NCBI GenBank assembly: GCA_007694885.1
Contig: REEW01000075.1
Span: forward strand, 8,551-72,550
DNA from: Wenzhouxiangella sp.
Lineage (GTDB): Bacteria > Pseudomonadota > Gammaproteobacteria > Xanthomonadales > Wenzhouxiangellaceae
DNA length: 64,000 nt
Direction of reading: 5' to 3'
In this document: one piece after another, positions 2,452 to 41,644 of the stretch
Position numbering within the stretch: position 1 is the first letter of the stretch
Layout of the letters: every line of letters begins with the position of its first letter
Position numbers and translations under genes: made by a program
The notes under the pieces: model-generated
Database searches by the model: none
The model's input: the letters and a program-made list of their open reading frames with translations, nothing else
What the model was told of the DNA's origin: nothing

Positions 2452-2459
2452 TCGCGACG

Positions 2460-23517: not shown

Positions 23518-24456
23518 TCAACGATGAAGTTTCGGGCTGGCGTCGGCTGGCGGCGATTCCGGCTTGAAAGGATGCCGCGACCAGCGTCGCTGATGCCAGC
23601 TCCACCACTGGGGATGGGCCAGGATGTGAGCCTGCATCATGTCGACCAGGATTTTAACCTCTTCAGCCAGGCCGCGTTCGTTGTTCATCAAGATCGGTTC
23701 GGAGAGGCGGAAATGCCAGTGCCGGTCGACGCCGACCAGCCATGCCGGCACCACGCAGGCCCCGGTGCGCCGGGCCATCTCCACCGGGCCCGGCGGCATG
23801 TGCAGCCGCTTGTGGAGAAAGTCGACCGGCACTCCGCCGGTCTTGCTGGCCTGGTCCATGAGGATGAAAATCACCTGGTTGGCCTTCAGCGCGGCGAGCA
23901 TTTTCCGCACCCCCGCTGCCGCCGGCTGCGCCGGAATCGCCTTGAGTCCCTGGCGTTCGATGCCGTCGCGGAAAAAGTCCGGCGTGATCTTGTTGGATTC
24001 GCGGTAGACCACGTGCACCGGGTAGCCAGCGGTGACCAGGTGAACGGCCAGGGCTACGCCGTTGCCCATGTGCATGCCGAGCAGGACGACCCCGCGCCCG
24101 CGATCCAGGGCACGATCCAGCGCTTCCAGGCCGCTGACCCGGCATGCGCCGGCAGTCTGCTCTGCGCTGATGGAACCCGAGTACAGAGCGAGAATCTCGA
24201 AGATGGCCCGATCGTTGATGCGGTAGGCCTCGCGCAGGATCTCGCCGAGGTCAGCACTGGCGGCCGGTCGGGGGCCCAGAACCCGGGCCAGCTGCCGGGT
24301 CAGCTGGCGTCTTTTCTTGCCATCAAGCCGGTAGTGCCAGGCGCCGAGCGTCTCGCCGATGCGGCGCAACGCCGCCCCACCGCCCACCAGGGCGGTGAGC
24401 CGGGCGGTGTGGCGCAGCAGGTGGAACCCGGCCCGCCGGAGCCGTCTGCGCATCAT
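23518..24456 (-). CDS. LpxL/HtrB-like lysophospholipid acyltransferase family protein
   Basis: GRGVVLLGMHMGN, ILMDQ, VDFL, PQWWSWHQRRW. Confidence 0.8.
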   Translation of the reverse strand: MMRRRLRRAGFHLLRHTARLTALVGGGAALRRIGETLGAWHYRLDGKKRRQLTRQLARVLGPRPAASADLGEILREAYRINDRAIFEILALYSGSISAEQTAGACRVSGLEALDRALDRGRGVVLLGMHMGNGVALAVHLVTAGYPVHVVYRESNKITPDFFRDGIERQGLKAIPAQPAAAGVRKMLAALKANQVIFILMDQASKTGGVPVDFLHKRLHMPPGPVEMARRTGACVVPAWLVGVDRHWHFRLSEPILMNNERGLAEEVKILVDMMQAHILAHPQWWSWHQRRWSRHPFKPESPPADASPKLHR

Positions 24457-26162
24457 GATCGTTCCTCGATTCGGCCCTCGCGCAGGCGGAACACGCAGTC
24501 GGCGGCCTCGACCAGACCCTCGTCGTGGCTGACCGCGAGCAGGGTCAGCTTGCCCCGGAGGTTCGTCACGGTCTCGATCACGGCCGCTTCGGATTCACTG
24601 TCGAGGTTGCTGGTTGCCTCGTCAAGGATCAGCAGGGCGGGCTGGTGAATCAGCGCGCGGGCGATCGCCAGGCGCTGGCGCTGGCCGCCCGAGAGCTTGC
24701 CGCCGCGCTCGCCCAGGAGGGTGTGCAGGCCCTGCGGCAGTTGCTCGACGAACTCCCATGCGTCGGCCTGCCTGAGCGCTTGTTCGGCAGCATCGGCCCC
24801 CAGCGCCGGGTCGCCGAGATTGAGATTGTTCAATACCGTGTCGTTGATCAGGAGCGAGTCCTGCGGCACGTAGCCGATCATGCGCCGCCACTGGAGGTGA
24901 TCGATTTCATCGAGGGCGACATCGTCGATCAGGACCGCGCCGCGATCGCAGTGCAACAGGCCGGCGACCAGGTCGATCAGGGTGGTCTTGCCCGAGCCGG
25001 ACGGACCGGTCAGAACGGTCAGCCGACCGGCATCGATGGTCAGGCTGATTTCATCGAGGATGGTCTGGTCGCCGTAGCCGAACGTCACCTTGTCGAAGCG
25101 AATGCCGCGGCGCAAGACGGGCTCGCGGTATCCGCGCGGCGGTTCGCGCTCGCCTTCGGCTTCTTCGATGGTCGCGCGCAGCGACCAGTAGGCGCTTTCG
25201 CTGACGGCCATGTGCTGGAGAGCACGCTGTCCCTTGGCCAGATGACTGACCGATCGGGCGATCAGAAAAATCAGGATCATGACCGTGGCCATGGGCATGC
25301 TCATCTGGACCAGGAAGAAGAAAAAGCCGACCCCGACCAGGATCGCCAGCATGGGCTCTTGCAGGGCAATCAGGGCCGCCTTGGCAAAGACCTGGTTTTT
25401 CAGGGCTTTTTTCAGCTGCTGGGTCTGGACCGAGAGCAGGCTGTCGATATGATCCTCGCGTGCCATGGCCTTGAGCGGTTTGACCGCGCCGAGTTGATCG
25501 GTCATGACCGACAGCAATGACTTGAGCAGACCGGTCTGGCGCCGTCCCGCTCCGCCGGCCATGCGGATCAGAAAGTGCAGCAGGCCGAGCAGGGCGCCGC
25601 CGAAGGCCAGCGCGATCAGGCTGGCTTGCCAGGAGATCAGTAGCGCCAGGCCGGCATAGATGACCGCGCTGATGCCCTGGGTGGCCATGACCGCGCCGTG
25701 GTAAAAGCCCTCCGAGGCTCGATGCGCCTCGGTTGCCATGGCGTTGGACAGCTTGCCCACCGGCTGGGCCAGGTAGTAGCGCCAGCGGCTGTGCATGACC
25801 GCCCGGATCAGGTTCAAACGCAGGTCGGTGGCCACGTGGGCCACGGTGTAGCCGACCTGGCGGTTGGCGAGCAGGACGATGACCGCCTTGAAGCCGATCA
25901 GGCCCACGCCCAGAACCAGCAGCGTGACCAGGGTGGGTTCCAGACCGAGACGCTCGACCAGGTCCAGGGCGACTTGTTCAGGCAGGGAAGGGTCGTCTTC
26001 GGCGCCGGTGGCCAGGTTGAGCATCGACAGCAACAGCGACAGTCCAAGACCATCCAGGAGCCCGGCGACGATCAGGGCGACCAGGGCCAGTGCGGTCCGC
26101 CCGGGGTAGGCCCGGGCAAAGGCGGCAAGCATGGCCAGGCCACCCTCGGTTCGGCGCTTCAT
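24453..26162 (-). CDS. ABC exporter (TMD-NBD fusion), putative glycolipid flippase
   Basis: GPSGSGKT, LSGGQ, ILDEATS; multi-TM N-terminus. Confidence 0.88.
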   Translation of the reverse strand: MKRRTEGGLAMLAAFARAYPGRTALALVALIVAGLLDGLGLSLLLSMLNLATGAEDDPSLPEQVALDLVERLGLEPTLVTLLVLGVGLIGFKAVIVLLANRQVGYTVAHVATDLRLNLIRAVMHSRWRYYLAQPVGKLSNAMATEAHRASEGFYHGAVMATQGISAVIYAGLALLISWQASLIALAFGGALLGLLHFLIRMAGGAGRRQTGLLKSLLSVMTDQLGAVKPLKAMAREDHIDSLLSVQTQQLKKALKNQVFAKAALIALQEPMLAILVGVGFFFFLVQMSMPMATVMILIFLIARSVSHLAKGQRALQHMAVSESAYWSLRATIEEAEGEREPPRGYREPVLRRGIRFDKVTFGYGDQTILDEISLTIDAGRLTVLTGPSGSGKTTLIDLVAGLLHCDRGAVLIDDVALDEIDHLQWRRMIGYVPQDSLLINDTVLNNLNLGDPALGADAAEQALRQADAWEFVEQLPQGLHTLLGERGGKLSGGQRQRLAIARALIHQPALLILDEATSNLDSESEAAVIETVTNLRGKLTLLAVSHDEGLVEAADCVFRLREGRIEERS

Positions 26163-27061
26163 CGAAATCCCCCCTGGCGCCACATCCGCCAGGCCAGGCC
26201 CCAGGCCGCCAGGCGCGGATACCGCCGCATGCGCTCGCTGGGCTCGACCCGCACCCCGCTGTGCCGCTCGACCTTCCAGACGATGTAGTCGATGCCGTTG
26301 CTGAAGGTGCCCGCGGCCTTGAACAGTCGGGCGAGGTTGAACAGTTTTCCGCTGAGCCGGCGCGCGAGCCAGCCGCCGCGCGCCATCGCCTTGTGCAGGC
26401 CGGTCGACGTCGGGGCCGAGGAAATCGCAAGGGCCGAGCTCAGCCGGCTCCAGTAGACCGGATCGGCTGCAATGAGGCGCCGGGCCGCCTGCGGCGGCTC
26501 CGGACGCAGCTCACAGCGATAAGTGGTGGCCAGGGCCAGGGTCCAGAACGCGGCTGAATCGGCAGTCGTTGCCGGTCCGGCAAGCGGCAGGACCCGGCGG
26601 GCAAAGAAGCGGGCCGCCACAGCCCTTGCATCGGCCAGTTCCCCGGCCAGCCCCGGGCTGCGGGCAAAAACCAGGCGGCAGGGCTGGCTGAAGCGCGCCC
26701 AGAAATACAGATCGATCGGATTGCGGCAGCGCCGGCAGAACTGGGCCGGGGTGATCACTGCGTATTTGCTCCGCAGTCGACCCTGTTCCGGGCCTGCTTC
26801 GAGGTAATACACGTTCGGCGGCAGTAGCCAGTTGAACAGGGCGGACGGACCCGTTCCGTAGAGGTCGCGATAACCCGAGACCAGGACCAGTAGATCGACC
26901 AGGCCGTCGCCGAGCTGGTCCTGGCGTCGGCACGAGCCGTACAGGAGCACGCCAAGCAGCTGATCGCCGTAACGCATTTTCAGCGCATCAAGCAGCGGTT
27001 CCAGGCCGCGCGGCGCCGCCGCGGCCAGGTCATCGAGCATGGTCTGCCGGACCGGATTCAC
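26159..27061 (-). CDS. Pol-beta-fold nucleotidyltransferase, Tam41/Mmp37-like (CpgC-like)
   Basis: LLYGSC..DGLVDLLV motif; KYAV and YFWARFSQP resemble Tam41 motifs; coupled to a kinase gene. Confidence 0.55.
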   Translation of the reverse strand: MNPVRQTMLDDLAAAAPRGLEPLLDALKMRYGDQLLGVLLYGSCRRQDQLGDGLVDLLVLVSGYRDLYGTGPSALFNWLLPPNVYYLEAGPEQGRLRSKYAVITPAQFCRRCRNPIDLYFWARFSQPCRLVFARSPGLAGELADARAVAARFFARRVLPLAGPATTADSAAFWTLALATTYRCELRPEPPQAARRLIAADPVYWSRLSSALAISSAPTSTGLHKAMARGGWLARRLSGKLFNLARLFKAAGTFSNGIDYIVWKVERHSGVRVEPSERMRRYPRLAAWGLAWRMWRQGGFR

Positions 27062-28065
27062 GGGCGCAGGAAACGAAACGCCGGTCCGGCCTGCACGGTC
27101 AGGGTTTCGTCCGGGTCCAGGCTGAACTCCTGGCCGTCCAGGCAGATCGACGGCAGGCCCTGAAGGCGCAGACGCCGGGTGCGTCCGCTCAGGTAGCCGC
27201 TGGCGGGATTCTGGTCGGGATGGAATCGCCCCCTGACCAGGGCCGGCAGGCGGCGCCAGAATCGGCGCGCATCGGCCCCGATGACGGTCAGGCGCAGCGC
27301 GCCGGTGCCGCGGTCGGCGTACGGGTCGATGCCGCCGGCGTGTTCGAGCGAGCTCAGCAGCACCAGGCGCACGTGGCCGTCAAGTGCGCCCAGCCCGTCG
27401 GCTTCGATGCGAAGTTTCGGCTGATGAAAGCTGCGCCGCCCGGACAGGCCGAGCAGGGCCAGCTGAGCAACCCGCCACAGCGTGGCCGGATGACCGGACC
27501 GTAGCCAGCCTTTTTTCTTGCGCCGATACTCGTGGCAGTCGCGGATGATTTCGTCGACCAGGGCGCCGGCAACGAAAAAACCGTACAGCGTGCCGTGCGT
27601 TGCGCTGCCGAGCTGCAAAACCCGGCGCTGCTCGACCGTCCAGGAGTCCGGCGAGTCGATCAGCTGCTCCAGCGATCGAAACAGGCGCGCGTGACTACCC
27701 AGATCGCGCGCGGTGAAGTTGGTCCGGCCGCCGCCGAGCATGCAAAGGATGGGTGCCGAGCCGTTTTCGGCCTGGTCGGCCAGGCAGGTGACCGTGGCCT
27801 GCAGGGTGCCGTCACCGCCGATGACGATGAGCCGGTCGCGGGCATCAAGCTCGGCGCGGCCCAGTGCCGTCGCGATTTCATCGGGGCCGTGGGCGCGATA
27901 CAGGGTGATGCCGCGGCCATCGACGAATCGTGTGATTCGGGCCAGTCGATTCGCCCCGCTCATGCGGAAGCTGTCCGGGTTGACCAGAATCACCGTTCTC
28001 GGACTGCGCCTTTCAGGCGCCGGCGAAATCGGGTTGGAAACGTGGGCGGCCGCCAGGCTCGTCAT
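27058..28065 (-). CDS. Diacylglycerol/sphingosine kinase family protein (putative ceramide kinase, CpgB-like)
   Basis: LVNPDS, IGGDGTL, LGGGRTN, LDGQ; start at 28065 inferred, not 28578. Confidence 0.78.
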   Translation of the reverse strand: MTSLAAAHVSNPISPAPERRSPRTVILVNPDSFRMSGANRLARITRFVDGRGITLYRAHGPDEIATALGRAELDARDRLIVIGGDGTLQATVTCLADQAENGSAPILCMLGGGRTNFTARDLGSHARLFRSLEQLIDSPDSWTVEQRRVLQLGSATHGTLYGFFVAGALVDEIIRDCHEYRRKKKGWLRSGHPATLWRVAQLALLGLSGRRSFHQPKLRIEADGLGALDGHVRLVLLSSLEHAGGIDPYADRGTGALRLTVIGADARRFWRRLPALVRGRFHPDQNPASGYLSGRTRRLRLQGLPSICLDGQEFSLDPDETLTVQAGPAFRFLRP

Positions 28066-29198: not shown

Positions 29199-29311
29199 CG
29201 TGATCCACCACACGTCAACCTGCAATTATACCCAGCGCGGCGCATGCACGAATGCAATAGTCGATTTGTCCTTGGCGTAAAATCACGGTTTGACCGCAAG
29301 CACCGGCCCCG

Positions 29312-30205
29312 ATGATTGATCGTCTCCGCCTGTACCGTGCCGGAATCTGGGCAGTGACCGCTCCGCTGCCGCGCAATCGTCGCAAGGCCTTGCGCCACCG
29401 ACTGCGCGCCGGCCTCGACAACCGCCGCACGCTGGGCGCCGACCTCCTGGTCCTGTCCCGGGCCAAGAGCGGGCGGACCTGGCTGCGGGCCATGCTCTCG
29501 CGCCTGTACCAGCACCGCCACGGCCTGGGCGAGCGCCAGCTGATCGAATACGACAACTTCCATCGCCAGTGCAATGCCGTGCCGATCATTGCCATGAGCC
29601 ACGGCCACTACCTCGATCAGCTGGCTCGACATGCGCGTCATGGCCCCGTGCTGAAGGCCAGGCCGGTGGTTTTTCTGCTCCGGGATCCGCGCGATGTGGC
29701 CGTATCGGAGTATTTTCAGTCCACCCGCCGGGCCAGCGCCCACAAGCGCGAGCTCTACGAGGTCGAGCAGGCCTCGTCGATGTTCGAGTTCGTCATGCTC
29801 TCGCCGCTGGGGCTGCCGGCGATCTGCGACTACCTGAACTTCTGGCACCGCGAGCTCGATGGCTGGCCGCGCGTTTACCGCTTGTTTTATGAAGCCTTGC
29901 GCGCCGATCCCGGCGCTGAAATGGCGCGTCTGCTGGCGTTTCTCGGGCAGGACTTCAGCGCCGACGAGATCGCCGAGGCGGTGGAATTCACCTCGTTTGA
30001 GGCACTGAAGCGAAAAGAGCGCGAAAACTTCTTTCACAACAGCCGCCTGCAGGCGGCCAACGTCGAAGACCCCGACTCCTACAAGGTTCGCCGTGGCAAG
30101 GTCGGCGGCTATCGCGACTACTTCGACAGCGAGGAGATCGAGCGCATCGACCGGTTCGTGGCCGAGCGCCTGGCGCCCGACCTGCTGGCCCGGTTGACGA
30201 GCTGA
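29312..30205 (+). CDS. PAPS-dependent sulfotransferase
   Basis: 5'-PSB KSGRTW, 3'-PB LRDPRDVAVS, C-terminal RRGKVGGY. Confidence 0.9.
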   Translation: MIDRLRLYRAGIWAVTAPLPRNRRKALRHRLRAGLDNRRTLGADLLVLSRAKSGRTWLRAMLSRLYQHRHGLGERQLIEYDNFHRQCNAVPIIAMSHGHYLDQLARHARHGPVLKARPVVFLLRDPRDVAVSEYFQSTRRASAHKRELYEVEQASSMFEFVMLSPLGLPAICDYLNFWHRELDGWPRVYRLFYEALRADPGAEMARLLAFLGQDFSADEIAEAVEFTSFEALKRKERENFFHNSRLQAANVEDPDSYKVRRGKVGGYRDYFDSEEIERIDRFVAERLAPDLLARLTS

Positions 30206-30211
30206 CAGCGC

Positions 30212-31570
30212 ATGCAGCCCGGCGCTGTCCTCATTCTTCCCTGCGAGACGCGCGTTCGGGAATTCGACGCCAAGTTGCTGCTCGGCATGCTCACCGCGGC
30301 GGCCGGCGGCGTTGCCATCGTCGGCAGCAAAAAGCCGATCGATCTGAGCTTGAGTCGCTTTCCTCCGGGGATCTACGTGGGCAAAAGCCTGACCGCGCGT
30401 TCTCGCCACAATCTTGCCATCGCCCGCGCCTGCGGTCATCGCGTGGTGCTGTGGGACGAAGAGGGTCTGGTCTGGGCCTCGCCGGAGGTGTACTGGAAGA
30501 CCAAGGTCGACCCTGAAACGCTCAATGCCCCGGAGCTGCTCATCGCCTGGGGAGAAGACAATGCCCAGGTCTGGCGTGACCACCCGGACTATGCTGGACC
30601 GCCGATCGAGGCGCTGGGCAACCCGCGCGCCGATCTGCTCACCCCCCGCCTGAGATCGCTGTTCGAGGCGGAAGTGGGCAGCATCCGGGCGACCCATGGC
30701 CGCTTCATTCTGATCAACACCAACTTCTCCCGGGTCAATCACCTCCAGCCGCGCCAGAACCGGCATCTCAAGTGGCTCAGGGAAAAGCGCCCCGACGATC
30801 CGCGTGGCGGCTTTGCCGCCCACAAGTTCGAGTTGTTTCAGGCTTTTTCCGACATGGTTCCCGAGCTTGCCCGGCGCCTGCCGGAGGTGCACTTCGTCGT
30901 CCGCCCGCACCCGAGCGAGAAGCGCCAGACCTGGGAACACGTAGCGGCCGGATTCGACAATGTCTCGGTCGCCCAGCACGGAAACGTGGTTGCGTGGCTG
31001 CTGGCCAGCGACGGCCTGATCCACAACGGCTGCACCACGGCCGTCGAGGCGTTTCAGCTGGACCGTCCGGCCATTGCGTTCCGGCCGGTGCGCTCGGCCC
31101 GCTACGATCATGCGCTGCCCAACGACATCAGCCTGGCAGCCGCCGACCTCGACGAGTTGGCCGGCCTGGTCGAGCGGGCCAGCGCGGACTCCGCGGCGCT
31201 GTTTTCCGAGCAGGCCGGCAGCGAAAGCCGCCAGGTCATGCGCGCAGCGCTGGCCGGTTTCGGAGAGCACGGGTTGGCCAGCGAGCGCATTGTGGCGCGC
31301 CTGGGCCAGCTGAGCGAGCAAGGCTCCATCCATGGCGCGCGCAGCCGCTGGATGCCGGCTGTCCTCGCCTTTCGGCGCCTGCTGCGGCTTCTCGAGCAGC
31401 GCCTGCCGGGCACGGCCAACTACCGCCCCTACCTGGCCCACATGTTCCCGGATATCGACCAGGCCGAGGTCGAGCAGAGCCTGCGACAGATGGCGTCGTG
31501 CCTGGACATTGCGCCGGTCCCGCGGGTCCGTGAACTCGAGACCAACGTGTTCCGGCTGGAGCCGGCCTGA
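30212..31570 (+). CDS. Surface carbohydrate biosynthesis protein (putative GT-B transferase)
   Basis: ETRVREFDAKLLL, WDEEGL, GNPRADLL, VRPHPSE, IHNGCTTAVEA. Confidence 0.7.
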   Translation: MQPGAVLILPCETRVREFDAKLLLGMLTAAAGGVAIVGSKKPIDLSLSRFPPGIYVGKSLTARSRHNLAIARACGHRVVLWDEEGLVWASPEVYWKTKVDPETLNAPELLIAWGEDNAQVWRDHPDYAGPPIEALGNPRADLLTPRLRSLFEAEVGSIRATHGRFILINTNFSRVNHLQPRQNRHLKWLREKRPDDPRGGFAAHKFELFQAFSDMVPELARRLPEVHFVVRPHPSEKRQTWEHVAAGFDNVSVAQHGNVVAWLLASDGLIHNGCTTAVEAFQLDRPAIAFRPVRSARYDHALPNDISLAAADLDELAGLVERASADSAALFSEQAGSESRQVMRAALAGFGEHGLASERIVARLGQLSEQGSIHGARSRWMPAVLAFRRLLRLLEQRLPGTANYRPYLAHMFPDIDQAEVEQSLRQMASCLDIAPVPRVRELETNVFRLEPA

Positions 31571-31663
31571 ACCGGGCCCTTGCGACCACGGGGTCCTTGG
31601 TAAACTGACCAGGTCGAACATGAAACCTTTCCCATTGTTCCAGAACACCGGGTGCAGCAGCCA

Positions 31664-32728
31664 ATGACCAACGTCAAGATTCTCGGTGCCGGCTCGATCG
31701 GCAACCACCTCGCCCACGGCGCCCGCCGACTGGGTTGGGAGGTCACCTTGAGCGATGTCGACCCGGCCGCGCTGGAGCGGACGCGCAGCGATATTTACCC
31801 GTCACGCTACGGCAGCTGGGATGATGCGATTCGGCTGGCAGCGCCGGCCGAACTCGGCAACGAGCGCTTCGACGTGGTCATCCTGGGCACCCCTCCCGAC
31901 ACCCACATTCCACTGGCCCTGGCCGAGATCGACCGGGCGCCGCCGCGCCTGATGCTGATCGAGAAACCGCTGAGTCCGCCCGACCTGGGCCCCTGCTCGG
32001 AACTGGTCGCGGCCGCCACCCGGGCCCAGGTGCGCGTCCTGGTCGGCTACAACCATCGCCTCACCCGCCATACCGCGCTGGCGGCGGAATGGCTCAAGGA
32101 CTCACCTCTTGGAGAAGCAACCACCCTGCGCGCCATGACCCGCGAACACTGGGGCGGCATCTTTGCCGCCCACCCCTGGCTGGCCGGGCCGGCCGATAGC
32201 TACCTGGGCTTCACCGCGCGCGGCGGCGGCGCGCTGGGCGAGCACAGTCATGCGATCAACATCTGGCAGTACTTTGCCGAACTGGCCGGCTGCGGGCGCA
32301 TTGTCGAGGTGGCCTGCATGCTCGACGAGGTCCGTCAGGACGGCGCCGCCTACGATCGCATCGCCCAGCTTTCGGTGCGCACCGAGCACGGCCTGGTCGG
32401 CACCATCGTCCAGGACGTGATTACGCGCCCGGCGCAGAAGTGGCTGCGTCTGGAAGGCAGCGAGGGGTATCTGGAATGGCAGGTCAGCGTGGATGCCGAT
32501 CACGACCTGGTTCGCCTGGTCGAGCACGACGGTCGGGTGCGCGAGGAACGTGTGGCCAAAACCCGGCCGGACGATTTTCGTGGTGAACTCGAGCATATGA
32601 ACGCCTTGCTCGGTCAGCCGCAGGCGCCGTCGCCGATCGATCTGGACTCCGGTCTGGAGACCATGCGGGTCATCGTCGCCGCGCTGCGCTCGGCCCGCGA
32701 AGGCCGGACCGTTCGGGTCGAGCGCTGA
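31664..32728 (+). CDS. Gfo/Idh/MocA family oxidoreductase
   Basis: GAGSIG, GTPPDTH, IEKP, VGYN, GGGALGEHSH. Confidence 0.85.
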   Translation: MTNVKILGAGSIGNHLAHGARRLGWEVTLSDVDPAALERTRSDIYPSRYGSWDDAIRLAAPAELGNERFDVVILGTPPDTHIPLALAEIDRAPPRLMLIEKPLSPPDLGPCSELVAAATRAQVRVLVGYNHRLTRHTALAAEWLKDSPLGEATTLRAMTREHWGGIFAAHPWLAGPADSYLGFTARGGGALGEHSHAINIWQYFAELAGCGRIVEVACMLDEVRQDGAAYDRIAQLSVRTEHGLVGTIVQDVITRPAQKWLRLEGSEGYLEWQVSVDADHDLVRLVEHDGRVREERVAKTRPDDFRGELEHMNALLGQPQAPSPIDLDSGLETMRVIVAALRSAREGRTVRVER

Positions 32729-32733
32729 AGCCG

Positions 32734-33798
32734 GTGAGGGCGGGGCAGCGCATCCTGGCCGTGGTGCCGGCCCGCGGCGGCAGCAAGGGCATTGCGCTGA
32801 AGAATCTGCACCCGGTGGCCGGCAAGCCGCTGCTGGTGCACACCGCCGAACTGCTTGGACGGCTCGACTGGGTTGACCGGGCGGTGGTGTCCACCGATCA
32901 CCTGCTGGTGCGCCAGACCGCGCTCGAGGCCGGCCTGGATGCACCGTTCATGCGCCCGCCCGAGTTGTCCGGCGACCGCATCGGGGACATTGAAGTGCTG
33001 CAGCATGCGCTGGCTGCCACCGAGAGCGACGACGGTACTCGCTACGACATCGTGGTGATGCTGCAGCCGACCTCGCCGCTGCGGCGCGCGGAAGACGTCA
33101 CCGCCGCCGTCGACAAGCTCCTGGCCGAACGACTCGACAGCGTCTGGACGGTCAGCCCCACCGATCTGAAAGCGCATCCGCTCAAGCAACTGGTCATCGA
33201 CCCCCGGGGTCGACTGGATTATTTCGACCCCCGGGGCGCCGACATCGTCGCCCGCCAGCAGCTCGAGCCGGTCTACCACCGCAACGGCGTGGCCTATGTC
33301 CTGCGCGCCGAGGCGCTCAGGCAGGGCCGGCTGATGGGCGAGCGGGCCGGCGCTCTGGTGATCGACGATGTACAGGTCAGCATCGACACGCTCGAGGATG
33401 TCGAGCGGGTGGAAAAGGTGCTCCAGGATGGGTCAGCGCCGTCGACCGCGGACGATCCCGCCCCGGCCCGGCCGCGCAGCCTGGTCATCGACATTGACGG
33501 GGTCGTGGCCGAAGCGCTGCCCGAACTCGATTACGCCCAGGCCGGTCCGATCCGCGCCAACATTGCCCGGATCAACGCGCTGTTCGAGGCCGGCTGCCAC
33601 ATCACCCTGTTCACCGCGCGCGGCTCGGGCACGGGCAAGGACTGGCGGGCGGTCACCGAGGAGCAATTGACCCGCTGGGGCGTCCGTTATCATGATCTGC
33701 GTTTCGGCAAGCCGCCGGCCGACTACTACATTGACGACCGCCTGGTCACCCTGGCCCACGTGCTTGCCCTGTGTGGCCGGGCCGATCCGGTGGCCTGA
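32734..33798 (+). CDS. neuA: Acylneuraminate (CMP-nonulosonate) cytidylyltransferase fused to HAD phosphatase
   Basis: PARGGSKGIALKN, LQPTSPLR, NG, IDTLED; C-terminal DIDG, FTARG, GKP..YIDD. Confidence 0.85.
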   Translation: MRAGQRILAVVPARGGSKGIALKNLHPVAGKPLLVHTAELLGRLDWVDRAVVSTDHLLVRQTALEAGLDAPFMRPPELSGDRIGDIEVLQHALAATESDDGTRYDIVVMLQPTSPLRRAEDVTAAVDKLLAERLDSVWTVSPTDLKAHPLKQLVIDPRGRLDYFDPRGADIVARQQLEPVYHRNGVAYVLRAEALRQGRLMGERAGALVIDDVQVSIDTLEDVERVEKVLQDGSAPSTADDPAPARPRSLVIDIDGVVAEALPELDYAQAGPIRANIARINALFEAGCHITLFTARGSGTGKDWRAVTEEQLTRWGVRYHDLRFGKPPADYYIDDRLVTLAHVLALCGRADPVA

Positions 33799-33827
33799 AA
33801 CCGATTTACTTGGCAAGGAAACACACA

Positions 33828-35324
33828 ATGGACAAGATCTTCGACGATCTGCACATCTTCGAAATGGCCAACAACCACCAGGGGGACGTCGACCACGGCC
33901 TCCGGATCATCGAGGCGGCAGCCCGGCTGGCGCGCGAGCACGACGTTCGCGCCGCGGTGAAATTCCAGTTTCGCGAGCTTGACAGCTTCATCCATCCCGA
34001 CGCCAGGGGCCGCGACGACATCAAGCACATCCCGCGCTTTGAAAGCACGCGCCTCGATGAAGGCCAGTTCCGGCAGCTGGTCGAGGCGACGCGCTCGGCC
34101 GGCCTGGTGACCGTGGCCACGCCGTTCGACGAGGCGTCGGTCGGACTGTGCCAGGCGCTGGGAGTCGAGATCATCAAGGTTGCCAGCTGCTCGGCGACCG
34201 ACTGGCCGCTGCTGGAGGAAATCGCCGCCGCCGACCAGCCGGTGATTGCCTCGACCGGCGGTCTGTCGATCCATGAGATCGACAACCTGGTCACGTTTCT
34301 GCACAAGCGCGTGCCGGCGCTGGCGGTGATGCACTGCGTGTCGCTGTATCCGACCCCGCCGGAAAAGCATGCACTGAACTTCATGGGCAAGATGATCCGG
34401 CGCTACCCCTACGTGACGATCGGCTATTCGGGGCATGAGGCGCCCGACAATACCGACGTGGTCATGATGGCCGTGGCCAAGGGCGCGAGGCTGCTCGAGC
34501 GCCATTTCGGTGTCGCCACCGACGACATTTCGCTCAACCAGTATTCGATGGACCCGGAGCAGGCCGGGCGCTGGCTTGCCGCCGCCGAACGTGCGCGCGC
34601 CATTGCCGGTGCAGACGATAACAAGCACGTCAGCCCGGCCGAGCGCGAGGCGCTGCTGCAGCTTCAGCGCGGTGTGTATGCGCGCCGGGCGATCGCCAAA
34701 GGCGAAGTCATCGAAGCCAATGACGTGTTTTTCGCCATGCCTTGCCGGGAAGGGCAGCTGGCCTCCGGACCCTTCGGCCAGTACCGCGCCCGATTCGTGG
34801 CCAGCCGCGACTACGCAGAGAACGAGGCCGTGTTCGAGCAGGCCCAGCAGGACCCCTACACCGAGCTGCGCGGGATTTTGCACGACGCCCGAGGGTTGCT
34901 CTACGAGGCCGGGGTCGCCCTGGGCGACGACATCAGTATCGAGGTATCGCATCATTACGGCCTCGATCGGTTCCGGGAAACCGGCTGCGTGCTGATCAAC
35001 TCGGTCAACCGCGAGTACTGCAACAAGTTCCTGATCATGATGCCGGGGCAGGAACATCCGCACCACAAGCACCGGGTCAAGGAAGAGACCTTCCACATGC
35101 TCTGGGGCGATCTGGAAGTCGATCTGGAAGGCGATCTCATCCACCTGCGGCCGGGCGACAAGTTGTTGGTCGAGCGCGACCGGATGCACGCGTTCCGGAG
35201 CCGCGGGGGCTGCATTTTTGCCGAGATCTCGACCCGGTCGATCCGCAGTGATTCCTACTATGCCGATGAAACCATCGCGCGCATGGACCCGCTGGAGCGC
35301 AAGACCCTGGTCGACGGCTGGTAA
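33828..35324 (+). CDS. neuB: NeuB-family nonulosonate synthase with SAF and C-terminal cupin (D-lyxose isomerase-like) domains
   Basis: EMANNHQGD, VKFQ, TPFD, KVAS, STGG, HCVSLYP, YSGHE, ERHF; cupin QEHPHHKH..KEETF..H. Confidence 0.88.
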   Translation: MDKIFDDLHIFEMANNHQGDVDHGLRIIEAAARLAREHDVRAAVKFQFRELDSFIHPDARGRDDIKHIPRFESTRLDEGQFRQLVEATRSAGLVTVATPFDEASVGLCQALGVEIIKVASCSATDWPLLEEIAAADQPVIASTGGLSIHEIDNLVTFLHKRVPALAVMHCVSLYPTPPEKHALNFMGKMIRRYPYVTIGYSGHEAPDNTDVVMMAVAKGARLLERHFGVATDDISLNQYSMDPEQAGRWLAAAERARAIAGADDNKHVSPAEREALLQLQRGVYARRAIAKGEVIEANDVFFAMPCREGQLASGPFGQYRARFVASRDYAENEAVFEQAQQDPYTELRGILHDARGLLYEAGVALGDDISIEVSHHYGLDRFRETGCVLINSVNREYCNKFLIMMPGQEHPHHKHRVKEETFHMLWGDLEVDLEGDLIHLRPGDKLLVERDRMHAFRSRGGCIFAEISTRSIRSDSYYADETIARMDPLERKTLVDGW

Positions 35325-35331
35325 GCCCTGC

Positions 35332-36516
35332 TCAGGCGCTCACGGTCATCTCGGCCAGGGCGGCGACGATCCGGTCGACGTCGGCATCGCTGTGGGCCGC
35401 GCTCAGGGACAGGCGCAGCAGGTTGAGTCCGGACGGCGTTGCCGGCGGGATCATCAGGTTGGCATAGATTCCGGCCTCCAGCAGCCCGCGCCAGAGCGCC
35501 AGGGCCTCTTCCCGTTCACCCAGGATGATGGCCGCCACCGGTCCGGGTACGTCGCTGCCCAGACGGTAGCCGAGCTCGGCCGCGGCCGCATAGAGCCGGG
35601 TAAAGTTGCGCTGCAGCTGGGCGCGAAGATCCTGACCCTGGAGCACCCGGCGCAGGGCGACCCGGGTTCCGGCAATGGTTGCCGGCGAAGGTGATGCGGT
35701 GAAGATGTAGGGGCGGGAGGCCAGACGCATCAACTGCAGCTGCGGATGCGGCGAGACGCAGAAACCGCCGATCCCGGCCAGGCTCTTGGAGAAGGTTCCG
35801 AGCACGAAGTCCACCCGATCGAGCAGACCACTGCTTTCGGTCAGGCCGAGACCACGATCACCGAACACGCCGAACGAATGCGCCTCGTCGACCAGAAGCC
35901 AGGCGCCGTGGCGCTCCTTGACCTCGACGAAGGCTTCCAGCGGCGGCCGGTCTCCGAGCATGGAATACAGGCCCTCGACAACGACCAGGGCCCGGGATGC
36001 GTCCGCGCCAAGACGTGTCAGGCGCCGATCGAGATTGTCCGGATCGTTGTGTCGAAAGCGGATGGTCTCTGCGTGGCTGAGCCGGGCACCGTCGTAAATG
36101 CTGGCGTGGCTGTCGGCATCGATGAGCAGATAGTCGCCTTTCCCGGCCAGCGCCGAGAGCGTGCCCAGGTTGGCCTGGTAGCCGGTCGAAAACACCATGG
36201 CCGCCGCCCAGCCAAAGGCCGCGGCCAGTTCATGTTCCAGCGCCCGGTGCGCCTGGTAGCTGCCATTGGCCATGCGCGACCCGGTGGTTCCGGACCCCAG
36301 GCTGGACAAGGCCTCGCTCGCCGCGGCAATCACTTCGGGATCATAGGTCAGGCCGAGGTAGTTGTTGGTACCGGCCAGCAGGACTTCGCGCCCGTCGATG
36401 ACGCCGCGAGTAGGCGACAGCACGGCCTCGATGGGCGTGGCGATGGCTGCCGGAGAGCGCGTGCCCAGGCTGGCCTGGGCATCGGCCAGGGGCTGAAACT
36501 TGTCGAACAGGCTCAA
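35332..36516 (-). CDS. spt: Serine palmitoyltransferase (AOS family, PLP-dependent)
   Basis: GTNNYLGL, GSRMANG, STGYQAN, HASIYDG, DEAHS, GTFSKS; next to ACP, reductase and ligase; no bio genes nearby. Confidence 0.85.
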   Translation of the reverse strand: MSLFDKFQPLADAQASLGTRSPAAIATPIEAVLSPTRGVIDGREVLLAGTNNYLGLTYDPEVIAAASEALSSLGSGTTGSRMANGSYQAHRALEHELAAAFGWAAAMVFSTGYQANLGTLSALAGKGDYLLIDADSHASIYDGARLSHAETIRFRHNDPDNLDRRLTRLGADASRALVVVEGLYSMLGDRPPLEAFVEVKERHGAWLLVDEAHSFGVFGDRGLGLTESSGLLDRVDFVLGTFSKSLAGIGGFCVSPHPQLQLMRLASRPYIFTASPSPATIAGTRVALRRVLQGQDLRAQLQRNFTRLYAAAAELGYRLGSDVPGPVAAIILGEREEALALWRGLLEAGIYANLMIPPATPSGLNLLRLSLSAAHSDADVDRIVAALAEMTVSA

Positions 36517-36526: not shown

Positions 36527-36772
36527 TCAGGTCAGCTTGGAGAGACGAACGGCCAGGTCGTTCAGGGTATTGACCTCGGCCAGAACATCGACCGGCACGG
36601 ACAGATCGAGTTCATCCTCGATTTCCATGACCAGGTTCATGATCTGGACCGAGTCCAGTCCGGCCTCGCTGGTCAGGCTTTGGGACCAGTCGATCTCGCG
36701 ATGCTCGGGCAGGGCCCGGGTCAAGGCGGCGGATATGGCCTGGCGGGCCAGCGCAAGAGTATCAGTCGTCAT
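36527..36772 (-). CDS. Acyl carrier protein (sphingolipid-dedicated)
   Basis: GLDSVQIMNLVMEIEDE phosphopantetheine motif; ~81 aa, acidic. Confidence 0.88.
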   Translation of the reverse strand: MTTDTLALARQAISAALTRALPEHREIDWSQSLTSEAGLDSVQIMNLVMEIEDELDLSVPVDVLAEVNTLNDLAVRLSKLT

Positions 36773-37689
36773 TGTCTCCAACCGGGTAATTCGGGCAAGG
36801 CGGACCGCAGGGTTTGCCGGGGTGTCCAGTCCGGCACCACGTCGCAAAGTCTACTATCACAGACCCAGTCGATGTGAGTAAGCTCTCGCACCTTGCCCGG
36901 GCCCAGTATCGCCGGACGTCGACGCAGGCGCGATCCCCCCTGGCTGGCCAGGCTCAACAGGTGCAAGCCCCACCGCGGCAGCGCTACGACCCGGACGCGA
37001 CGGCCCGAAACCTGCTCGGCGATGTCTGCGACATCGGCCCAGCTGTAGCCGTCGGGCCGACCGTCATCGAGGCAGCGCGTGCGTTGCCCCAGCCACGGCA
37101 GCCCGAGCAAATGATCGATGGCCCGGGACAGGTCATCGATGTGGATCAGGGAGAAACGGGCCTGTCCCGGTCCGGCCCGTAGCAGCCATCCGCGGGCCAG
37201 CATTTTCCATAGCGCGGCCAGGGCCTGATCCTTCGGCCCGTAGACCGCCGGCGGTCGCAGAATGAACCAGTCCAGCAGGCTGGTCGCCACCAGGTTTTCC
37301 GCGTCCCGTTTGCTGGCCGCGTAGTCCGACAGGGCCGGCTCGCGCGCGGCCAGGCTGGAGATGAAGATCAGACGAGCGCCCGGGTTGCGCTGTTCAAGGG
37401 CATGGACCAGGCGGCCGGTGCCGACGACGTTGACCCGGGCGAAGTCGGCGAAATTCCGCCCCGCAATGGCTCCGGCAAGGTGAACGACGCTGTCGGCATC
37501 GGTGATCAACTCATTCAGCGCAGCCTGGTTTTCCAGGTGCCCGCAGACTTCGGTCAGGCGAGGATGGCGGGCCAGCGTCCCGGTTTTGCGGGTCAGTGCG
37601 CGGACCGAGTAACCTCGATCCAGGAGCAGGCCGAGTACGGCGCGACCGATGAAGCCGGTGGCCCCGGTCAGGGCAACGACGGCGGTCAC
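36769..37689 (-). CDS. cerR: NAD-dependent epimerase/dehydratase family, putative ceramide reductase
   Basis: TGATGFIG, SSLAAREP, YAASK, RPPAVYGP; position matches the spt-acp-cerR-ligase block. Confidence 0.75.
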   Translation of the reverse strand: MTAVVALTGATGFIGRAVLGLLLDRGYSVRALTRKTGTLARHPRLTEVCGHLENQAALNELITDADSVVHLAGAIAGRNFADFARVNVVGTGRLVHALEQRNPGARLIFISSLAAREPALSDYAASKRDAENLVATSLLDWFILRPPAVYGPKDQALAALWKMLARGWLLRAGPGQARFSLIHIDDLSRAIDHLLGLPWLGQRTRCLDDGRPDGYSWADVADIAEQVSGRRVRVVALPRWGLHLLSLASQGGSRLRRRPAILGPGKVRELTHIDWVCDSRLCDVVPDWTPRQTLRSALPELPGWRQ

Positions 37690-37704
37690 GGCAGCAGCGC
37701 CATT

Positions 37705-39507
37705 TCAGCCCCTGGAGGGTTCGGCGGCTTCGGTGTGCGGCGTCCGATTGACCAGCTCGCGGGGCAGGAACTGGCGCTGCTCGAGGTCGTTGCGCTTGAG
37801 GAAATCCAGCCGGGCCCCGCTGCGCGACAGCTTGCCGGACGATGTCCGCGGAAGCGTATGCAGCGGCACCAGCTCGATCAGGCAGGCGATCCCGAATTCC
37901 GACTGGATCTTCTGTTTCAGGCGCTCGACCAGGTCGGCCTGGCGGAATGCGTTCTGCTCGCGGCATTGAACCACCAGGACCGCGACTTCGCTGCCGTCTT
38001 CGCTCGGAATGGAAAACGCCGAGGCATCCTCCGGGCGAACTTCGGGCTGTTGTTCGGCAACATATTCAAGATCCTGCGGCCAAATGTTACGACCATTGAT
38101 GATCAGCAAGTCCTTGGCTCGGCCGGTGATGAACAGGGAGTCGCCGGCTCGGTAGCCGACGTCTCCGGTATTGAGCCAGCCGTCCTTGGACAAGGCCACA
38201 GCCGTGGCTTCGGGGTTGTTGGCATAGCCGCTCATGACGCTTGGGCCGCGCAGGAAAATCACGCCGCACTCGCGTTCGGCCGCGCTCGTCCCGTCGTCTC
38301 TGCGGATCTCGACTTCGTATCCGGGCAGGTGCCGTCCGCAGTTGACGAACTCGGTCAGGCGCTGATCCTGATCACCGCCTGTGCCGTCGGCCGGCACGGC
38401 GAGTCGGTCGATGGCCAGCCGGTCGGCATCGACCAGGTCGGTATCGATCCCCTGGCCCAGGGGCGAGAAGCTGACCGCCAGGGAACACTCCGCCATGCCG
38501 TAGCAGGGCAGAAACGCCTGGGGACTGAACCGGGACGGCTGCAGGGCGTCGGCGAAGCCCTGGAGCCACGGCGCCCGGATCATTTCCGCGCCCACCCCGG
38601 CAACGCGCCAGGCCGACAGATCGTACTGGCCGACGTCGCTTGCGCGCAGACGGCGCGCGCACAGTGCATAGCCGAACGGCGGGCTGAAGGAAATGGTGGC
38701 GCGGTTGCGCGACATCAGGCTCAGCCACAGGCGCGGTCGCATGGCGAATTCCCGGGTTCCCAGGTAGTCGACCGACAGTTGCGAGACGACCGGACCCAGG
38801 ATCAGTCCGACCAGTCCCATGTCGTGGTAGTAGGGCAGCCAGGACATGAATCGGTCGCCGCGCCGGATCTGGACGCCGTACTGGAGAATGCCGGCCAGGT
38901 TATCCAGGACCGCGCGCTGGGTGATCATCGTGCCGCGCGGGAAGCGGGTCGAACCCGAGGTGTACTGCAAATAGGCCAGTTCGCCGGGTTGCGGCGCTTG
39001 CGGCAGGCATTCGGCCCGATCGAGGTTCTCGAACACCGAAAGCGGGCCGACCACGTCCAGCTCCAGGCCATCGGCAGCTTCGGCCAGGAAGGTGGCAAAC
39101 GAGTCCGGTGCGAAGGCGCCGCGCGCCTGGCAGTCGATCAGCATGGCCCGCAAGTGCTGCACGAACGCCTCGCGTCCTCCCAGGTGGACGGCGGCAGGCA
39201 ACGGCACCGGCACCAGGCCGGCGTACTGGCAGGCAAAAAACAGAACCAGGAAATCCGGATGGGTATCGGCGACCAGGGCAATTCTGCTGCCGCGCGGCAG
39301 GTTCAGCCCGTGCAGGCGGTGCGCCATCTCACAGGCCCCGCGCCGGAGCTCGGCATAGCTCAGCGCCCGCTGCAGTTCGCCGCGGCCATCATAGAAATTG
39401 CACCCGGTGGTTCCCTGGGCGGCGTAATCCAGCGCTTCGGCGAGGCTTGCGTAACCCGAGGTTTTCAGGGGCAAGGAGTTTTCGGTCGGGGTCGGCTGCG
39501 GCATCAA
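37705..39507 (-). CDS. Fatty acyl-AMP ligase / acyl-ACP synthetase
   Basis: YLQYTSGSTRFPRG, SWLPYYHDMGLVG, YGMAE, TGD, RTSSGK. Confidence 0.88.
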   Translation of the reverse strand: MMPQPTPTENSLPLKTSGYASLAEALDYAAQGTTGCNFYDGRGELQRALSYAELRRGACEMAHRLHGLNLPRGSRIALVADTHPDFLVLFFACQYAGLVPVPLPAAVHLGGREAFVQHLRAMLIDCQARGAFAPDSFATFLAEAADGLELDVVGPLSVFENLDRAECLPQAPQPGELAYLQYTSGSTRFPRGTMITQRAVLDNLAGILQYGVQIRRGDRFMSWLPYYHDMGLVGLILGPVVSQLSVDYLGTREFAMRPRLWLSLMSRNRATISFSPPFGYALCARRLRASDVGQYDLSAWRVAGVGAEMIRAPWLQGFADALQPSRFSPQAFLPCYGMAECSLAVSFSPLGQGIDTDLVDADRLAIDRLAVPADGTGGDQDQRLTEFVNCGRHLPGYEVEIRRDDGTSAAERECGVIFLRGPSVMSGYANNPEATAVALSKDGWLNTGDVGYRAGDSLFITGRAKDLLIINGRNIWPQDLEYVAEQQPEVRPEDASAFSIPSEDGSEVAVLVVQCREQNAFRQADLVERLKQKIQSEFGIACLIELVPLHTLPRTSSGKLSRSGARLDFLKRNDLEQRQFLPRELVNRTPHTEAAEPSRG

Positions 39508-39703: not shown

Positions 39704-40837
39704 ATGGCTGCAACAGTCCACGTTGTGCCGGTCTGTTCAAGGCGCGACTGGCAGAGTTTTCATGCGTTTCCCGGACGGATCTATGCCGATGATCCGCACT
39801 GGGTCAAGCCTCTGCTGCTGGAGTCCAGGGCCTTGTGGTCGCCCAGGACGCCCTGGTTCGAACACGCCCGGGCCCAGGCCTTCCTGGCCTGGCGCGATCA
39901 ACGACCGGTCGGCCGAATCAGTGCCCAGGTCGATGACCTGCAGCCGCTCGAGCAGGGCCGCAAAATCGGCTATTTCGGCCAGTTCGAGTGCCTGGACGAC
40001 CGGGAGATCGCCCGGGCGATGTTTGCCCAGGCGGGCCGTTGGCTCTCCCGGCACGGCTGCGAGCGGGTCAGGGGACCCTACGATCTGGGCATCAACCAGG
40101 CCTGCGGGCTGCTGGTGGAGGGCCGCGACTCGCCGCCCATGATCATGATGGGTCATGCCCCGGCCTACTACCAGGGTCTGATCGAAGACGCCGGATTGGC
40201 CCGCGAGATGGATTTGCTCGCCTACCTGCTGCCGCCGGACTTCGATCCGCCGCAGGCGATGGTTCGACTGCTCGAGCGCAGCGCCCGGCGGGTTCGGCTC
40301 CGGCCCATGGATTTCTCGAACTTCAAAAATGAGATCAGTGTGTTGCGCGATATTTTCAACGATGCCTGGTCGGCCAACTGGGGGTTCGTGCCGCTGACCC
40401 GAGCGGAGTTCAAGCGCATGGGTGACGAAATGCGCAAGATCCTGAAGCCGGCCTATACCTGCCTTGCCGAGGTGGACGGTGAGCCGGCGGGTTTCCTCGT
40501 CGCGCTGCCCAATCTCAATGAGTTGATCCGCGATCTGGACGGCCGTTTGCTGCCGACCGGCTGGGCCCGGCTGCTCTGGCGTCTGGCGCGCAACCGGGCG
40601 AGCTCGGCCCGGGTTCCGCTGATGGGCGTGCGTCAGGTCTACCAGCGCGGTGCGCTCGGTGCGGCGATCAGTTTCGGCATGATCGACGCGGTGCGTCGTG
40701 CTTTGCATGCCGACGGCATTCGGCGGGTGGAGGTATCTTGGATCCTGGAAACCAACCGGGGAATGAACTCGATGATCGAGGCCATGGGCGGACAGTTGTA
40801 CAAACGATACCGGCTCTACGGCCGGGCACTGACCTGA
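39704..40837 (+). CDS. bcerS: Bacterial ceramide synthase (GNAT-type, YghO-like)
   Basis: IYADDPHWVKPL, GRISAQ, GYFGQFE, MMGHAPAYY, FNDAWSANWGFVP, SWILETN, YKRYRLY; divergent from the spt operon. Confidence 0.78.
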   Translation: MAATVHVVPVCSRRDWQSFHAFPGRIYADDPHWVKPLLLESRALWSPRTPWFEHARAQAFLAWRDQRPVGRISAQVDDLQPLEQGRKIGYFGQFECLDDREIARAMFAQAGRWLSRHGCERVRGPYDLGINQACGLLVEGRDSPPMIMMGHAPAYYQGLIEDAGLAREMDLLAYLLPPDFDPPQAMVRLLERSARRVRLRPMDFSNFKNEISVLRDIFNDAWSANWGFVPLTRAEFKRMGDEMRKILKPAYTCLAEVDGEPAGFLVALPNLNELIRDLDGRLLPTGWARLLWRLARNRASSARVPLMGVRQVYQRGALGAAISFGMIDAVRRALHADGIRRVEVSWILETNRGMNSMIEAMGGQLYKRYRLYGRALT

Positions 40838-40846
40838 GGCTGATCC

Positions 40847-41644
40847 GTGGTCGAAGATTTCGACGCCATCGTTCTGGCCGGCGACCGGGGGCCGGATGAC
40901 CCCCTCGCGCGCCATGCCGGTGTGGCCGGCAAGGCGCTGGTGCCGGTCGCCGGGACGCCCATGCTGACCCGGGTTCTGGCGGTGCTGGCGGGCTGGCCCC
41001 GGTTGCGCCGACTGGTGCTGGTCGCGCCCGATCTGCCGGCCTACCGCGAGGCCGCGGCCGGTGTCGCCGATTCGCGCCGCCTGATCTGGCTGGAGCCTTG
41101 CGCGTCCTTGAGCGCCAGCGTGCGCGCAGCGCTGGCGTCGACAGCCGGTGCCCAGCGCCTGGTGCTGACCGCCGATCACGCCCTGCTCGACCGGGCCTGG
41201 CTGGATCGTATGGCCGAAGCCGGGGAGCCCGGCGACGGCTTTGCCATGTCGATCGGCCTGACCGACTGGCACGGGGTCATGCGGCGCTTTCCCGGCAGTC
41301 GGCGGACCCGTTACCGGTTCAGCGACCGCAGTGTCTGTGGAACCAACCTGTTCGCCATCCACGACGACAGCGTCGAGGCCCTGCTGGAGGTCTGGCAGCG
41401 GGTCGAGCGCGAGCGCAAGAAACCATGGAAAATCCTCAGCCTGCTGGGCTGGGGCAATCTGGGCCGATACCTGGCCGGACGCCTTGATCTTGACGCAGCA
41501 TTCGCCGCGCTCTCGGTCCGTGTCGGGGTCGGTGTTCGACCGCTGCTGCTGGCTGATCCGCTCACGGCAGTGGATGTGGACAGCCCGGCCGATCTTGCGC
41601 TGGTCGAGTCGGTGGTCGCAAGAATGGATCAACAAACGTGCTGA
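40847..41644 (+). CDS. MobA-like NTP transferase (CpgD-like)
   Basis: AIVLAG, KALVPVAG, LTADHAL, DVDSPAD. Confidence 0.78.
   Translation: MVEDFDAIVLAGDRGPDDPLARHAGVAGKALVPVAGTPMLTRVLAVLAGWPRLRRLVLVAPDLPAYREAAAGVADSRRLIWLEPCASLSASVRAALASTAGAQRLVLTADHALLDRAWLDRMAEAGEPGDGFAMSIGLTDWHGVMRRFPGSRRTRYRFSDRSVCGTNLFAIHDDSVEALLEVWQRVERERKKPWKILSLLGWGNLGRYLAGRLDLDAAFAALSVRVGVGVRPLLLADPLTAVDVDSPADLALVESVVARMDQQTC

Follow-up and report, generated by a model that had tools for sequence, protein, structure and literature searches.

A block of five plus-strand genes lies inside a sphingolipid locus of Wenzhouxiangella sp. (assembly GCA_007694885.1, contig REEW01000075.1, positions 8,551 to 72,550); the window, as used below, is this whole stretch of 64,000 nucleotides. 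An earlier, sequence-only reading had placed the five genes between two minus-strand parts and had the block end 7 bp from the stop of spt, the serine palmitoyltransferase (SPT) gene. Window annotation and profile scans confirm every gene, strand and coordinate of that description, including the seven bases between the neuB stop (35324) and the spt stop (35332), which lie tail-to-tail. Absent from the first description are two domain fusions, a HAD-type domain on NeuA and a D-lyxose-isomerase-type cupin on NeuB. The closest matches of this NeuB are Wenzhouxiangella and Wenzhouxiangellaceae records. The block comprises:

29312..30205, plus strand: sulfotransferase of the 3′-phosphoadenosine-5′-phosphosulfate (PAPS) type (PF00685, E 4e-27; cytosolic SULT structures, E 2e-13)
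30212..31570, plus strand: TIGR04396 protein, predicted CMP (cytidine monophosphate)-ulosonate transferase of GT-B fold (300 bits, cut-off 125; DEEG at 82-85, RPHP at 231-234)
31664..32728, plus strand: Gfo/Idh/MocA NAD(P) oxidoreductase (family match)
32734..33798, plus strand: fusion of a NeuA-like CMP-ulosonate synthetase and a HAD-type domain (DIDG at 253)
33828..35324, plus strand: NeuB-family ulosonate synthase fused to a D-lyxose/D-mannose-isomerase-like cupin (PF07385 for the cupin)

The SPT passes its curated cut-off and is accompanied by acp, cerR-like and ligase genes, the combination that marks a proteobacterial sphingolipid locus. The genes on either side of the block are:

20534..21253 (start approximate), minus strand: 2-oxoglutarate (2OG)-Fe(II) oxygenase (PF13640)
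21231..23504, minus strand: two-domain glycosyltransferase of 757 residues, with a GT8-like GT-A domain and an ELM1/GtrOC1 GT-B domain
23518..24456, minus strand: LpxL-family acyltransferase (PF03279)
24453..26183, minus strand: MsbA-type ATP-binding cassette (ABC) exporter, separate from the true msbA at 700-2451
26159..27061, minus strand: nucleotidyltransferase-like protein that adjoins the kinase in spt loci (resembling CC_1161 in position only; no family match in the profile scans, a weak match having E 0.87)
27058..28065 (start approximate), minus strand: DAGK-family lipid kinase, likely a ceramide kinase (PF00781; role by analogy with CC_1160 in the available text of PMC11324152)
28113..29198 (ATG at 29198), minus strand: fatty-acid desaturase/hydroxylase family protein (PF00487)
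35332..36516, minus strand: serine palmitoyltransferase, spt (NF047599, 577 bits, cut-off 500)
36527..39507, minus strand: acp, NAD-dependent reductase (cerR by position) and fatty acyl-AMP ligase (family matches)
39704..43769, plus strand: GNAT-like protein (bcerS by position), MobA-like NTP transferase and a second lptF-lptG pair

Two LptF/LptG pairs are present in the genome of the window (G000; contigs C23 and C111), the assembly of which is 88% complete. Positions 700-4201 of the window also hold a canonical msbA, lpxK and a kdsB-like gene, and contig C97 of G000 carries a second sulfotransferase (L355:8635-9576), 33% identical to that of the block.

Linkage, inheritance and transcription of the block

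In the family, 93 genomes were searched for SPT and for orthologues of NeuB and of the TIGR04396 glycosyltransferase. SPT is present in 70, the NeuB orthologue in 17 and the orthologous glycosyltransferase in 19; these 19 are the block carriers, neuB being cut by contig ends in two of them (G019 and G096). The spt locus was read in 59 of the 70 genomes, the other 11 being eight of the 22 in g17 and three from further genera. In all 15 informative carriers neuB and spt share a contig and stand tail-to-tail (neuB in G083 and G096 as a 3′ end only), and in the remaining four (G108, G073, G018 and G019) the block reaches a contig end on the spt side. The recurrent linkage to spt expected by the sequence-only reading is thus borne out wherever it is visible, and a block in a lipopolysaccharide (LPS) or capsule locus, which would have spoken against it, occurs in none of the 19 carriers.

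On its other side the block adjoins the desaturase gene in five carriers, plsC/DUF2339/ppa genes in six, a kinase-TPR gene in two (G084 scanned, G083 assigned by clustering) and a contig end in six. Since neighbours other than the desaturase occur here, the desaturase block has moved away in one clade while the five genes stayed with spt. As had been anticipated for relatives, spt stands directly before the desaturase in 10 genomes on one contig, and in G095 by way of a 99-nt contig overlap (such overlap checks closed two of nine gaps). Unrelated spt neighbours such as ppa, plsC, peptidases and transporters were found in G024, G016, G076, G103, G105, G078, 14 g17 genomes and 7 genomes of other genera. 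An alternative glycosylation cassette occupies the slot in none of the 59 loci read, contrary to the expectation that different cassettes would alternate there. The left-hand block, from desaturase to oxygenase, shows decay in several non-carriers: in G024 (L041) the ABC, acyltransferase and oxygenase genes are missing and GT8-ELM1 is broken, and the desaturase is partly deleted in G090 (L070) and lost in G099 (L069).

The history of the block was traced on a core tree of spt, ligase, cerR and bcerS (48 rows, with 14 outgroup or g17 rows set aside) and on an independent housekeeping tree of ftsQAZ-lpxC (55 rows); the trees are quick LG+G4 trees without bootstrap, several rows are under half filled and the rooting of the core tree is assumed. 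Presence and absence of the block need six changes on either tree. The deepest ingroup branches of the core tree are carriers (L125, L131, G074 and G073), and on the housekeeping tree carrier G074 is deepest and carrier G073 next after g17. The non-carriers fall into five nested groups, of which one is sister to carrier G005, and a single carrier clade is rejected (AU [approximately unbiased] test, p 7e-97). The block tree has seven strong splits in common with the core tree and six with the housekeeping tree, its patristic distances correlate with both (r 0.94 with the core, 0.91 with ftsQAZ-lpxC), and its conflicts are confined to G010/G083/G084/G018. This pattern is most simply read as a single gain followed by five losses; since the block trees agree with the core and housekeeping trees and the deepest branches are carriers, the block is old and vertically inherited and was likely lost about five times. 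The adjacency of spt and desaturase, which had been taken for the original, continuous operon, is on these trees a derived state that arose by repeated loss. The housekeeping tree includes 11 genomes without spt, none of them a carrier; a clade of 11 (G003, G006, G012, G017, G085-G088, G091, G100 and G104) is without spt, desaturase and block and has kept lpxC.

Two further observations concern these trees. The spt block of the genus groups with Thioalkalivibrio and another gammaproteobacterial record (L125, L131) before three other genera of the same family, which suggests, on the core tree with its assumed rooting, that the whole locus moved once as a unit, in one direction or the other. The lone TIGR04396 gene of G024 was considered as a relic of the block and rejected, as a FastTree phylogeny joins it to L134 and keeps it apart from the family.

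In composition the block is native: its GC content (0.64-0.69) is that of its flanks, and its codon use falls between the 58th and 84th percentile of 1085 open reading frames of the genome, a native range that argues against a foreign origin. In agreement with the sequence-only reading, which had seen no direct repeats, none of the repeats listed (20 of 50 direct families, 25 of 55 inverted pairs) brackets the block. A recent insertion is rejected on these grounds together with the trees.

Predicted promoter elements lie in the gap before the block and within it:

29225..29230, minus strand: predicted -10 box TATAAT of the desaturase-to-oxygenase block (cross-genome conservation)
29278..29283, plus strand: predicted -10 box TAAAAT of the five-gene block (cross-genome conservation)
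31601..31606, plus strand: possible internal -10 box TAAACT before the oxidoreductase gene (weak)

Of 31 desaturase loci, 24 have TATAAT ahead of the gene, loci with an adjacent spt included (chance 0.001 per 122 nt), and the hexamer is found upstream of the ligase in 38 of 53; it is absent upstream of spt (0/62), ABC (0/34) and neuB (0/39). A TA[T/A/C]AAT-type hexamer stands ahead of the sulfotransferase gene in 16 of 26 loci, most often at a distance of 30-39 nt from its start; every one of the 13 family loci is among them. The internal pattern (TATAAT/TAAACT/TAAAAT) is weak, with 9 of 38 loci and related hexamers recognized by eye in other family loci. A sigma-70 scan of the intergenic gap returned no full promoter; the boxes are predicted from cross-genome conservation of the -10 element. 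The divergent promoter that had been proposed at 29199-29311 is therefore matched by divergent predicted -10 boxes, and RNA reads are too thin to bear on it: three runs of the same study gave 268 reads, mostly less than 95% alike and many on the ABC motif, and the few on the block, with mate orientation opposite to that on the flanks, are likewise too weak to use.

Because the desaturase has a conserved -10 box of its own, the two minus-strand parts probably do not form a single operon, and the block need therefore split no transcript; the 'otherwise continuous' minus-strand operon of the sequence-only reading is not supported. The left-hand block is likely a transcription unit of its own, which would explain why it could be separated from, or rejoined to, spt. 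At the spt-desaturase junctions of non-carriers TATAAT stands about 6-10 nt before the likely ATG, which suggests a leaderless mRNA.

Predicted chemistry of the proposed headgroup

The window NeuB scores well below the thresholds for synthases of N-acetylneuraminic (Neu5Ac), legionaminic (Leg) and pseudaminic (Pse) acid (155 bits against a cut-off of 400 for TIGR03569, 128 against 340 for TIGR03586). R314 and E134 of Neisseria meningitidis NeuB align with its M304 and S122, and in the aligned NeuB loci M occupies the R314 site in 76 of 79 and S the E134 site in 80 of 80. The best match in the PDB is 3g8r (E 2e-92), which we take to be a Chromobacterium-type NeuB; it shares the non-arginine residue at the 314 site and the serine at the E134 site and, unlike the window protein, has 350 aa and no cupin. 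R314 is essential in bacterial NeuB and is replaced in eukaryotic phospho-sugar synthases, according to the available text of PMC8208679. The HAD-type domain spans NeuA residues 249-346 (match 9iqw, E 1e-8), accompanies NeuA in 65 of the 75 loci with neuA and has no match to the NF058599 profile. UDP-N-acetylglucosamine (UDP-GlcNAc) 2-epimerase (NeuC) was not found in four of six carriers (G000, G020, G023 and G083). The fusions of NeuB to an isomerase and of NeuA to a phosphatase, the loss of R314 and the missing NeuC point to a non-acetylated sugar resembling KDN (2-keto-3-deoxynononic acid), a product that carries phosphate being suggested by the fused phosphatase and a supply of aldose by the cupin. 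KDN itself is an evenly balanced proposition, an eight-carbon, oxidised or epimerised relative of KDN falls somewhat behind it, and an N-acyl sugar is improbable.

A KDN pathway consists of a synthase, a phosphatase and a CMP synthetase that act on mannose 6-phosphate; in Bacteroides these are a KDN-9-phosphate synthase, a phosphatase and a CMP-KDN synthetase. All three domains (synthase, HAD-type phosphatase, CMP synthetase) are present in the block, the HAD domain not being of the NF058599 type, and NeuB with a phosphatase and NeuA in the absence of NeuC resembles bacterial KDN synthesis. Unlike known KDN systems, which serve capsule or other glycans, the window has the lyxose-isomerase cupin, the non-NF058599 HAD domain and an added oxidoreductase and sulfotransferase. 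An extra sugar-isomerase-type domain is also carried by the NeuB of the Serratia KL1/KL2 neuAB genes (available text of PMC9000132).

The structure model of the TIGR04396 protein (pLDDT 93) is of the GT-B type, and the glycosyltransferase sequences keep D/E-E and H-P motifs in 33 of 33 cases. The D/E-D/E-G and HP motifs of bacterial GT-B sialyltransferases, as given in the available text of PMC2169525, are matched on this modelled fold, and the protein is predicted to be a CMP-ulosonate transferase. The 757-residue GT8-ELM1 protein could build its acceptor. Profile searches of both proteins against PDB sequences returned nothing useful.

Gene content, linkage, phylogeny, motifs and folds make it probable, with considerable room for doubt, that the five genes are an optional module placing a sulfated ulosonic acid on a glyco-ceramide, and from them we infer the reactions, the sugar and the acceptor. 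The cupin would supply an aldose phosphate of the mannose or lyxose type, which NeuB would condense with phosphoenolpyruvate; the HAD domain would dephosphorylate the product, NeuA would activate it with CMP, and oxidation or epimerisation of the sugar may fall to the oxidoreductase. Transfer to a lipid acceptor, built by the kinase, nucleotidyltransferase and GT8-ELM1 protein, would be the task of the TIGR04396 protein, and sulfation that of the sulfotransferase; the lipid would be carried outward by the ABC exporter together with the second LptFG pair.

The ceramide and CPG-CPG2 locus of Caulobacter crescentus (CC_1168-CC_1152; available text of PMC11324152) is similar in its ligase-cerR-acp-spt genes, the position of the ceramide synthase, the DAGK kinase, the MobA-like NTP transferase and a second LptFG pair, named LptF2/G2 in Caulobacter (available text of bioRxiv 10.64898/2026.04.12.717747). 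It differs from the window locus, which has GT8-ELM1, LpxL-like, MsbA-like and oxygenase genes and the five-gene block. With G030 homologues as tblastn queries, CC_1159-, CC_1152- and CC_1158-like genes were not found in the 88% complete G000; these queries gave no homologue of the CDP-alcohol transferase, metallophosphoesterase, LicD-like transferase or flippase.

Occurrence outside the family and competing explanations

From 244 NeuB-cupin loci 80 were kept (16 in the family, 22 close outside it, 42 distant), and 50 of the 64 outside genomes were searched for SPT and the GT8-like domain. Of the 22 close loci, 14, in Thioalkalivibrio, Pseudomonadales and Myxococcota/delta records, have desaturase-to-oxygenase genes in varied order, whereas spt or the kinase-nucleotidyltransferase pair occurs in 4. 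In G129 (L145, L266) the block genes are interspersed with ABC, GT8-ELM1, kinase, SPT-like and lptG genes in a single cluster. The GT8-like domain occurs in 15 of the 50 genomes, all among the 22 closest carriers. SPT at 51% identity or more is found in 18 of 20 proteobacterial NeuB-cupin genomes (two matches partial; L173, presumably proteobacterial, is counted with those so named by record title) versus 15 of 399 in a class-wide random draw. The same draw contains seven genomes with TIGR04396, all seven with neuA or neuB nearby and two with SPT (Fisher p 0.025). Among the 72 metagenome TIGR04396 loci in the matches listed, at least 37 have neuA/neuB and at least 14 stand beside sphingolipid-locus markers; for listed loci of at least 9 kb the markers appear in at least 12 of 32, four of these loci being near-copies.

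The window TIGR04396 protein belongs to a 37-row subclade, all of whose loci have the oxidoreductase and NeuB-cupin except for the lone copy of G024. Elsewhere a TIGR04396 gene directly follows spt (L305), and G522 has three copies in sphingolipid loci with a different NeuB. Taken together, the TIGR04396 proteins resemble a general ulosonate transferase family, one that serves sphingolipid loci frequently but not invariably. In distant bacteria different ulosonic-acid pathways stand beside TIGR04396 genes in such loci, which points to variation between lineages and not to exchange in the family slot. One module, of NeuB, a short-chain dehydrogenase/reductase, aldehyde dehydrogenase, NeuA, a transketolase-like protein, a KdsC-like phosphatase and two or three TIGR04396 genes (L318, L314, L310, L322, L347-L348), adjoins ABC/acyltransferase or spt genes, one copy lying next to dsrAB, and may make a higher-carbon ulosonic acid. 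A PLD (phospholipase D)-like PF13091 gene recurs beside TIGR04396 genes, several times in sphingolipid loci, and may encode another headgroup enzyme (L305:11370-12479, L333:8929-9984, L348:6607-7647, L349:7913-8968, L173:11557-12618). Optional extras in outside loci are a second sulfotransferase, an FkbM methyltransferase and a 2OG-oxygenase-like gene, the last named by eye from an HxD...H motif with no Pfam match.

Several observations weigh against the headgroup role. The genome holds LPS genes (lpxC, waaA, msbA, lpxK, kdsB-like), and families of LPS type also account for the acyltransferase, the ABC exporter and the ELM1/GtrOC1 domain. Only one of the 42 distant NeuB-cupin loci has sphingolipid neighbours, five of the seven TIGR04396 genomes of the random draw are without an SPT match, and the co-occurrence counts include kin and are not independent. 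The SPT-like gene of L266 falls below the SPT cut-off (540 versus 640 bits), the spt-like gene beside L142 was rejected as BioF, and L130, L133 and L138 are without a TIGR04396 gene. Four Nitrosomonas loci have the glycosyltransferase-Gfo-neuA-neuB genes among housekeeping genes, away from spt and with no sulfotransferase or GT8. A 2-epimerase is present in two of five carriers; adenylyl sulfate (APS) kinase is strong in only three of five carriers and was not found in G000 at its 88% completeness. As to the transferase, the folds nearest to its model are UDP-GlcNAc 2-epimerases, tied with TarL/TagF and CMP-releasing capsule polymerases (Z 18-20), a polysialyltransferase fold scores 12.7, and only 25 of 33 sequences retain the G of DEEG; a UDP-GlcNAc 2-epimerase is a candidate alternative for this protein.

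Decoration of the LPS core or lipid A by the block, alone or with GT8-ELM1 and the acyltransferase, the adjacency to spt reflecting a shared envelope history, would fit these LPS genes and LPS-type families, the occurrence of TIGR04396 with neuA/neuB in genomes without SPT, and the KDN capsule served by Serratia neuAB (available text of PMC9000132). It is an unlikely explanation, given that the carriers never have the block in an LPS or capsule locus, that it was not found in the spt-less clade although lpxC is kept there, and that SPT co-occurs as described. Less likely again is a separate, non-ceramide glycolipid made by the block and the left-hand genes and co-exported with sphingolipids: the kinase and its partner, both part of the left block, are found in spt loci elsewhere, and in L305 the transferase gene directly follows spt, as against the tightest outside partners of the block being GT8-ELM1, acyltransferase and oxygenase and not spt, and the location of spt, kinase and lptFG apart from the block in several Pseudomonadales genomes. 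A swappable, O-antigen-like cassette recently inserted into a continuous operon, as originally proposed, could draw on presence and absence as a unit, on the existing empty state, on the different NeuB types that accompany the transferase in distant spt loci, and on the conflict at G010/G083/G084/G018, which suggests local recombination. It is largely refuted for the family and very improbable in the face of vertical inheritance on trees that agree with the host, deep-branching carriers, native composition, an empty state due to repeated loss, the missing alternative cassettes and a desaturase block with its own promoter. The headgroup function, which the sequence-only reading had also proposed, is retained as the best reading of the block.

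Bacterial ceramide headgroups include phosphoglycerate, hexose or hexuronic acid, inositol phosphate, ethanolamine phosphate and amino acids, besides acyl-chain sulfonates. The predicted ceramide glycan with nonulosonic acid and sulfate is like animal gangliosides and sulfatides; unlike the animal system, its transferase is of the GT-B fold and not GT29, and it would probably be built on a phospho-ceramide. An ulosonate-bearing bacterial ceramide was not found in the literature searched, most subscription papers and supplements with gene-neighbourhood figures lying outside the search, and is not described in the available text of PMC11324152, PMC9000132, PMC8208679, PMC11334938, PMC11765627 or the LptF2G2 and SugarBase preprints; a search of the same reach, outside most subscription papers, found no literature on the function of TIGR04396.

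As an evolutionary finding alone, an old block lost several times is ordinary. If the headgroup reading is true, bacteria would have a counterpart of gangliosides in a sulfated headgroup resembling sialic acid, and a function would be assigned both to TIGR04396 and to the widespread NeuB-cupin/NeuA-HAD pair. It is a tentative proposal, short of even, that free-living Gammaproteobacteria, Nitrosomonas and Myxococcota make ganglioside-like ceramides with KDN-like or other nonulosonic acids, sulfated in some lineages, with TIGR04396 as the ulosonate transferase paired with differing NeuB pathways. Sister lineages with and without the block make the headgroup reading directly testable.

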